This document shows, piece by piece, positions 37,249 through 38,862 of a stretch of DNA of 64,000 bases. Position numbers and translations under genes: made by a program. Location of the stretch: NCBI GenBank assembly GCA_039545335.1, contig BCIN01000001.1, positions 1,733,129 to 1,797,128 on the forward strand. Direction: 5' to 3'. The stretch's first letter is position 1; the number at the start of each line of letters is the position of its first letter. Source of the DNA: Kondoa subrosea. Its lineage: Eukaryota. Below the pieces are notes generated by a model. The model ran no database searches and was not told where the DNA came from. It saw nothing but the letters and a program-made list of their open reading frames with translations.

Positions 37249-37543
37249 GTAATGATTGGATTAAGAATACGTGACAGAACAAAGGCTTTGTATATAGCAT
37301 ACATAATTGAGCGTTCAGTGCGATTAAAGAGGAATAATTCATCTAATATAGGTGGTTAGGAATGACTGAGACGGAAAGGAAGACATAGAGGCAGGGAATA
37401 AGCAGTATTGGATCACACAAATGCATTTTGTTGCTTCTCCCATTCCTATATATTTTGTTTCTCCCTTTTGCGTTTCTTAGAATCTAGCTTGCAGTTTTCC
37501 ACCTGCTGTAGCAGCTTCTGTCTGTTTAGCATAAGGTTCATAA

Positions 37544-38862
37544 CTAAACGCTGCCTCAAGCATCAGCTACTGCTTTGTTACTCATCAACATTGGATCTCC
37601 CACCTGTGCCCGCTGATGAAGAACACTTTGTCGATTGAAGCATCGATAGGAGCTGCTGGTTTAGCTGAATTGGCAGGGAAAGTAGGAGGAGAAGTCTTGG
37701 AGGCAGAAGATTCAACGGTAGAGTTCTCACTGTGAGCAATCCAGAAGCAAATTCAGCATCCATTTACTAGAATGATGATTTTTGCGAGATAAAATCTCAC
37801 ATTTTGATTTCTGAACCAGAGTTTCCGGCAATCAAACGTTTCCAAGCTTCGTGGCATTCCAAGATGATTTCTAAGGCGTACTTCTTGTTCTTAGCTTCAC
37901 CGCTGAAAGCGAACATGTTTTCTGGCTTTCCGTCAGGAATCTGTAACTTTCGTAAGCATATCAGAGACAGAAGAGGGGAGACAGGCGAACTTTGTAGATT
38001 CTGTGCATTCGACGACCAACCGATCAGATTATGCTGAAACAAAGCCGTCTCAGCGCACCTGAACCATTCATTTGAAGCTGTAGAGTTTGCTGGCGTCAGA
38101 TACTTAATGCAGGTCATACAAACAGCTACGTACCTCGGATAAGACCAGGCAGATGACGTTCGACATCCTCAATATCGTTGAGCTTAGGTGCCAAAGGATC
38201 GTTGACGTCAATGACCTGTCCTTCATATATCAGCTCTCTTTTGCCCATCCAAATGCATACTGCCAGGACGCACGAGCACTTTCCAGTCAGTTTCACCTTC
38301 ATCAAGTAAAGCCATAATGCCCAAAATCTTGACTTGTTTGACTTGACCAACATAACCTACGGCTTCACCGATTTCGCAAACATCTAAAGGATCGTTATCT
38401 CCTTTAGCTTTGGTTTCGGCGTGGGTGTGGTTTGGGTCTTCCCAGGTCTAAAGTTTCATTTTAGCATACTACGCATGATTTGCGCAGAAGGGAGGAACTG
38501 CTCACCTGAGGGAAAGCACCATAGTTCCAGATATAACCATGATGAGGGAAGCAGTTTCTAACGAAACGCAATTTACCCTTCTTGGTGTCTTGAACAATTG
38601 GGTTGAAAGGTTGATCTTTAGAGATTTCTAGTTTCGCATTCGTCCATCTTGGGATTTCGACGACCATGTTGAAGACATTACGGTCTGAGTTGGCGTACAA
38701 AGGCAAGTCATGGAAGAAAGATTGCACTTGACCAGTTTTCGAGTCTGAGAGGTAGACTTTGTAGTCAAACGTGTTGGCTGCTCCGATTTGGAGAGGCTTG
38801 TGAGAAGATTCAGTCATAATGTGTGAAGTGATTTGGGATAAACGTCGAGTGACCGTTTGCAT
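37544..38862 (-). CDS. IPP1: Family I inorganic pyrophosphatase (predicted alternative N- and C-termini; long isoform ends at 37477)
   Basis: [60 protein letters not shown]; spliced C-terminus [13 protein letters not shown]. Confidence 0.96.

Follow-up and report, generated by a model that had tools for sequence, protein, structure and literature searches.

The IPP1-type gene on the minus strand of a 64,000-nucleotide stretch of the Kondoa subrosea genome (hereafter "the window") is most likely spliced in two ways that differ by 7 nt at the last acceptor, and the rarer of the two, as far as the comparison with close relatives can tell, skips the stop codon of the ordinary enzyme and opens a tail that ends in Ala-Arg-Phe, a tripeptide resembling the C-terminal peroxisomal signal PTS1. 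We think that the full chain of events, that is, alternative splicing, a tail kept by selection and peroxisomal import of a pyrophosphatase isoform, is a probable account of these sequences, although a good deal less than a certain one.

The identity of the gene is clear: it encodes a soluble inorganic pyrophosphatase of family I (Pfam PF00719). Against this profile, exon 1 scores 46.5 bits and exon 2 scores 54.4 (curated cut-off 23.5), and the protein of a close relative (P0001, discussed below) covers the whole profile with 170.1 bits. The spliced translation also contains the stretch GDNDPLD, in which D-x-D-P-x-D is the metal-binding signature of family I pyrophosphatases. Rebuilt from its coordinates, the gene has eight exons, with the main ATG at 38817; exons 1 to 4 lie at 38817-38506, 38447-38274, 38215-38134 and 38077-38059, exons 5 to 7 at 38000-37991, 37940-37801 and 37729-37604, and exon 8 starts either at 37550 (short form of the last intron, the exon running to the TAG at 37544) or at 37543 (long form). 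The canonical coding sequence (37544..38817, TAG stop included) gives a protein of 289 residues on spliced translation. Every exon junction is matched by an intron-less contig (L001) from a relative that is 98% identical. Two of the exons are consecutive microexons, of 19 nt (38059-38077) and 10 nt (37991-38000), both confirmed by the same contig; the donor of the 10-nt one is GTTCGC.

The last intron has a single donor (GTGGGA, its GT at 37603-37602) and two acceptors, both of the YAG type. Splicing to the proximal CAG, which ends at 37551, removes 53 nt (37551..37603); the exon then begins at 37550, reads C GTT TAG, and the protein ends ...FFISGHSV after 289 residues. The AG of the distal acceptor (37545-37544) is itself part of this TAG stop. 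Its use removes 60 nt (37544..37603) and starts the exon at 37543, with the consequence that a Ser codon is re-formed from AG and T and is followed by YEPYAKQTEAATAGGKLQARF and a TAA at 37479-37477, making a protein of 309 residues. The tail frame that is reached by distal splicing only (37477..37543) thus consists of the T completing Ser, 21 codons and the TAA, and its terminal tripeptide Ala-Arg-Phe is encoded at 37480..37488. Between the two acceptors lies the segment CGTTTAG (37544..37550), which belongs to the last exon of the short-intron mRNA, where it provides the end of Ser, Val and the stop TAG (37546-37544), and which is removed with the intron in the long form. Seven is not a multiple of three, and the two forms consequently end in -HSV (short intron) and -ARF (long intron). 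The original prediction had given this arrangement from the letters alone, and its donor at 37603, its acceptors at 37551 and 37544 and its TAA at 37477-37479 are all correct on the minus strand; spliced translation likewise bears out the end FFISGHSV that it derived from the proximal acceptor, and the extension ending in -ARF that it derived from the AG of the stop codon.

Both acceptors are plausible in their position, since the distances from a branch-point-like CTGAT motif (37562..37566, with its A at 37563) to the 3' end of the intron, 12 nt for the proximal and 19 nt for the distal one, fall within the normal range set by the other six introns of the gene (12-23 nt). The proximal acceptor is expected to dominate. 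Retention of the last intron would lead to ...GHRWEIQC and a stop, an end that carries no targeting signal. Stop-codon readthrough as a route to the tail is ruled out, as the TAG is followed in frame by TTA and then by TGA. An AG a few bases past a 3' splice site is common, and the tandem-acceptor arrangement by itself could be due to chance; it is the comparison with relatives that raises it above chance.

Of the 2347 candidate proteins in a search with exon 1, 2334 scored E <= 0.001, and the best 120 of these were used. The best match, P0001, aligns with the window protein at 97.9% identity over 288 residues. It is encoded on a contig of 1043 nt, which is too short to hold some 400 nt of introns in addition, so that the contig must be mRNA-like. 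In P0001 the residues GHS are joined directly to YEPYAK, precisely as expected from distal splicing, and the C-terminus is -SARF. When metagenome contigs were scanned with P0001, 80 loci were kept. One of them, L001 (1079 nt), is 100% identical to residues 28-320 of P0001 and fully spliced, with both microexons included, and it represents the proximal form: it reads ...CACAG CGTTTAG TTATGAACC..., the tail following in the +1 frame directly after the TAG. With the distal form in P0001 and the proximal form in L001, both exist, as transcript-like contigs or their proteins, in one near-identical relative; the 7-nt difference between these two forms is deduced from the protein of P0001 and the DNA of L001. 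From this relative we infer that the distal acceptor is also used in Kondoa subrosea itself, probably at a low share. Positions 1-102 of L001, upstream of the codons for FDYKVY, are unlike both the window and P0001; the contig may be a chimera there, or a different 5' exon may have been used.

A second locus, L002, is 88% identical to P0001 (tblastn), and its protein, P0002, is about 90% identical to that of the window. L002 is intron-less and shows the proximal junction, and its TAG stop again ends a 7-nt segment, here CGTCTAG. Its tail in the +1 frame, YDTGKGFNAKI followed by a stop, ends in -AKI; it is ten residues shorter than the window tail and largely different from it. The two tails are nevertheless alike in starting with Tyr and an acidic residue and in ending with Gly-x-x-hydrophobic-amide-Ala-basic-hydrophobic. 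The genes of both the L001 and the L002 relatives are represented by spliced contigs, and we assume that they have the corresponding introns.

The tail's conservation as coding sequence emerges from the alignment of the spliced window mRNA with L001. Within the tail, the two differ at 2, 1 and 8 of the 21 sites at codon positions 1, 2 and 3, respectively, and in the main coding sequence at 11, 1 and 97 of 273, which sets the difference at third positions at about 35%. Twenty of the 21 tail residues are kept, the single change being Gln to Ser at position -4. If the third-position rate is taken as a proxy for neutral change, three or fewer changes among the 42 first and second positions have a binomial probability of 2.2e-5; that at least 8 of the 11 tail differences should fall on one codon position has a probability of 0.009. 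Identity amounts to 82.5% in the tail and drops to 61% in the 3' UTR past the tail stop (52 +/- 3.7% for shuffled sequences), and the tail stop itself is TAA in the window and TGA in L001. The bias of the tail differences towards third positions means that the stretch past the annotated stop evolves as coding sequence in precisely the frame opened by distal splicing, and these comparisons support the view that this frame is under purifying selection.

The PTS1 consensus at the extreme C-terminus is [SAC][KRH][LMIF]. Each of the three species in the close clade keeps a tripeptide of this type: -ARF in the window, -ARF in L001/P0001 and -AKI in L002. As a control we took the 66 of the 80 loci in which the C-terminal motif is present in one frame, and these yielded 113 complete alternative-frame tails. 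The strict pattern occurs among the 113 in L001, in L002 and in L075/L076 only, the last two being one sequence present twice, with -CHL after a tail of 42 residues. Outside L001 and L002, therefore, 111 alternative-frame tails include two loci, with one shared sequence, that end PTS1-like, and apart from this chance-like -CHL pair no PTS1-ending alternative frame was found in the other 64 motif-bearing loci. In particular, L003, L005, L006 and the remaining loci, whose identity is some 80% or lower, have none, which indicates that the feature is young and confined to a small clade. Among the proteins listed the picture is the same: P0001 is the one homologue out of 123 with the strict pattern at its C-terminus, and the one out of 110 motif-bearing homologues with more than 8 residues after the C-terminal motif. 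A search with residues 272-320 of P0001 recovered only P0001 among proteins of near length, and none among shorter ones.

The interpretation in the original prediction is thus upheld in part. It had suggested looking among orthologs for a conserved CAG-N4-TAG and a frame ending in a PTS1; L001 and L002 have the 7-nt segment ending in TAG and such a frame, and relatives at about 80% identity or lower have no such frame. Its reading of the long form as a peroxisomal isoform gains from the distal junction in P0001, from the conserved tail and from the three PTS1-type ends out of three, and finds no counterpart in distant relatives. Near the stop codon L005, one of the relatives at about 80%, reads AGCGTATGAACC where the window has AGCGTTTAGTTATGAACC; the two look alike except that five bases are missing from L005, which stops at a TGA and has no frame ending in a PTS1. 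This comparison suggests an origin of the TAG arrangement inside the clade. We also observe that many more distant fungal Ipp1 proteins end in -PNL (12), -PSL (5), -SNL or -SQL; such ends, seen among the listed P0001-P0123 and in L029, L036, L043 and L060, seem to resemble weak PTS1 variants.

The other end of the protein has to be considered too. An upstream in-frame ATG (38862-38860), 45 bases before the main ATG and directly behind a stop codon, would add 15 residues (38818..38862, minus strand), among them the nonapeptide RLSQITSHI (38844-38818), which is similar to a PTS2. The PTS2 consensus near the N-terminus is R-[LVIQ]-x-x-[LVIH]-[LSGA]-x-[HQ]-[LA]; the window nonapeptide fits it at positions 1, 2, 5 and 8 and departs from it at positions 6 (T) and 9 (I). 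The nonapeptide of P0001, RLSQISTHL, fits in full, and that of the L002 clade is RLSSITSHI. A loose PTS2-like pattern is present in 15 of the 123 listed homologues, including named proteins of Ustilaginomycotina and Agaricomycetes, and strings similar to R-x6-H-L occur in many more loci. The upstream ATG has a T at -3, which is a weak context, and the main ATG an A, so that leaky scanning would yield mostly the short N-terminus. In P0001 the frame is open through the extension to the edge of the contig, which means that a transcript with both signals exists in the relative. Because the upstream ATG adds a PTS2-like nonapeptide, the tail is probably not the sole route to peroxisomes, and the PTS1 would be partly redundant in this gene.

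How the gene might work can be put as follows. It codes for Ipp1, the essential soluble pyrophosphatase, and its last intron would be resolved at one or the other of the tandem acceptors. Most splicing would take place at the first AG past the branch point (CAG, 37551) and produce the ordinary enzyme, ending ...GHSV before the TAG. In a minority of cases the next AG, inside that stop codon, would be chosen; the stop would then leave with the intron, a Ser codon would be re-formed, and translation would continue in the +1 frame into the 21-codon tail ending in Ala-Arg-Phe. Acting as a PTS1, this tripeptide would allow Pex5 to carry a fraction of the enzyme into peroxisomes, where it would hydrolyse the pyrophosphate that fatty-acid activation and other ATP-dependent reactions set free. 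For Pex5 binding, import and the metabolic role, we infer this much from the terminal tripeptides and from the literature.

One could go further and imagine that a single gene makes up to four proteins, a leaky upstream ATG (PTS2) being combined with a stop-derived acceptor (PTS1) so that both import pathways are served. We find this extension tempting and put it forward as a rather doubtful one. If it were true, the TAG would be constrained twice, in its role as a stop and in its role as an acceptor. The window gene may even have been caught midway in a hand-over from PTS2 to PTS1, a reading that we draw from its PTS2-like motif, which is off the consensus at two positions, together with the youth of the PTS1 tail.

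Other explanations of the same observations deserve a careful hearing. A genuine long isoform with a selected tail may exist without any peroxisomal signal being involved, the tail serving to tune stability, dimer contacts or some other localisation and the A-[KR]-[FI] end being incidental. Such a view can point out that coding conservation of the tail is what the comparison shows, that a final Phe is rare among PTS1 variants, that no Pfam family matches the tail and that the gene already has its PTS2-like extension. We nevertheless hold it to be unlikely, given that two tails differing in length and in sequence both finish in a PTS1-type tripeptide (ARF and AKI), a pattern found in about 1-2% of the control tails, that both tripeptides are reported as experimentally validated fungal PTS1s (PMC2132610, PMC3372373), and that pyrophosphatase is described as a recurrent target of cryptic peroxisomal signals (PMC4207609).

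Use of the distal AG could instead be splicing noise, yielding an extended protein devoid of function whose PTS1-like end is a coincidence. This seems to us improbable: noise would hardly leave changes biased to third positions, with 20 of 21 residues kept against a third-position difference of about 35%, nor would it preserve the TAG stop, the 7-nt spacing and a PTS1-type end in three species, and a minor isoform of this kind would rarely assemble as a contig of its own. These points outweigh, in our opinion, the facts that acceptors in tandem, separated by a few bases, are frequent and commonly see low-level use, that the distal junction is present in one contig-derived protein only (P0001) and that more distant relatives have no tail. 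Finally, one could deny alternative splicing altogether and suppose that the window gene makes the short form only, P0001 stemming from a genomic allele or paralogue of the relative that has lost 7 nt, or from faulty assembly. P0001 is indeed known from its protein sequence, and the first 100 nt or so of L001, which differ from the window and from P0001, show that such contigs can be chimeric. The stretch lost would, however, have to equal exactly the 7 nt that separate the two AGs of the window's intron, and we judge this explanation very improbable; a constitutively peroxisomal copy would, moreover, leave unexplained why the window, L001 and L002 all have an intact stop and, past it, a tail conserved in the +1 frame. 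We thus retain the preferred reading, a gene probably spliced in two ways whose rarer product would be directed to peroxisomes.

The gene lies between a dihydrouridine synthase gene (PF01207; 38938-39770, minus strand), whose end lies only some 75 nt from the upstream ATG of IPP1, and a TLC-domain gene (PF03798; 36321-37248, plus strand), which is convergent with IPP1 and ends 228 nt from the tail stop codon. A quick tree placed the window protein within a clade of environmental sequences only, and the best named homologues among the matches listed are 70-75% identical to it. Acyl-CoA synthesis and other ATP-dependent activations become irreversible once their pyrophosphate is removed, and, to our knowledge, there is little documentation of how peroxisomes get rid of pyrophosphate. 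A PTS1 generated by splicing and conserved in a fungal Ipp1 would be an independent case for pyrophosphatase as a regular peroxisomal enzyme of low abundance. There is also a lesson for annotation, in that a TAG stop located a few bases past a 3' splice site can conceal a second, functional C-terminus; such hidden ends are almost never recorded by gene callers or protein databases, as illustrated here by the one listed homologue out of 123.

How new is all this? Peroxisomal isoforms of pyrophosphatase have been proposed for several organisms by Stiebler et al. (2014, PMC4207609), the signals being a splice-derived C-terminal PTS1 for Drosophila Nurf-38, an N-terminal PTS2 for Ustilago maydis Ipp1 and, through readthrough, PTS1s for C. 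elegans pyp-1 and for mammalian PPA1 and PPA2. The rationale given there is the clearing of pyrophosphate from fatty-acid activation, and the same paper cites pyrophosphatase activity in rat liver peroxisomes; a 2022 review restates these isoforms. Since they are already in print, the original prediction overrated the novelty of the case. Cryptic PTS1s generated by tandem 3' splice sites are equally part of the published record. Full-text searches of the literature brought up no paper on a PTS1 made by splicing in a fungal Ipp1, with the proviso that Table S2 of PMC4207609 may list candidates. Two traits are particular to this case, namely that the stop codon of the short form supplies the distal acceptor and that a PTS2-like extension co-occurs with a cryptic PTS1; this sharing of one gene by both kinds of end sets the window gene apart from the cases as they are presented in PMC4207609.

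Among other enzymes, U. maydis GAPDH and A. nidulans PGK have a cryptic PTS1 (Freitag et al. 2012, as summarised in PMC3798809). The enzymes differ from that of the window gene, and the principle, according to that summary, is alike: by way of an alternatively spliced transcript, an enzyme that is abundant in the cytosol acquires a C-terminal PTS1 on a minor part of its molecules. As to the tripeptide itself, ARF was reported to be sufficient on a reporter, and necessary for efficient Pex5-dependent import, in the alcohol oxidase of P. pastoris (Waterham et al. 1997, PMC2132610), and the statement in the original prediction that -ARF is the PTS1 of methylotrophic-yeast alcohol oxidase proved right for Pichia and Hansenula (PMC2132610). 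A final Phe is uncommon in a PTS1 and its acceptance depends on the species, and it is reported to fail in mammalian cells (PMC2132610). The alcohol oxidase of Pichia/Hansenula and the putative long isoform share the same terminal tripeptide, although the protein and the organisms are unrelated, and the residue before ARF is Leu in alcohol oxidase, Gln in the window and Ser in the L001/P0001 relative.

The closest parallel to the window gene is MDH2 of Yarrowia lipolytica (YALI0E14190g), in which tandem 3' splice sites 4 nt apart lead to either -PAN or -AKI (Kabran et al. 2012, PMC3372373); there, junction counts and localisation were measured, and -AKI is reported to direct the protein to peroxisomes. 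As in MDH2, the last intron of the window gene has one donor and two acceptors whose spacing is not a multiple of three, and the short intron gives a presumably cytosolic end and the long one a PTS1-type end, so that one gene would serve both compartments. The -AKI of MDH2 is, in addition, the very tripeptide that terminates the tail of L002. The two cases differ in that MDH2 encodes a malate dehydrogenase, with a spacing of 4 nt, and the window gene a pyrophosphatase, with a spacing of 7 nt; a distal AG placed inside the stop codon of the short form is a trait of the window gene, not described for MDH2 in section 3.2 of PMC3372373. If our interpretation is correct, another lineage would have reached the solution adopted by Yarrowia MDH2.
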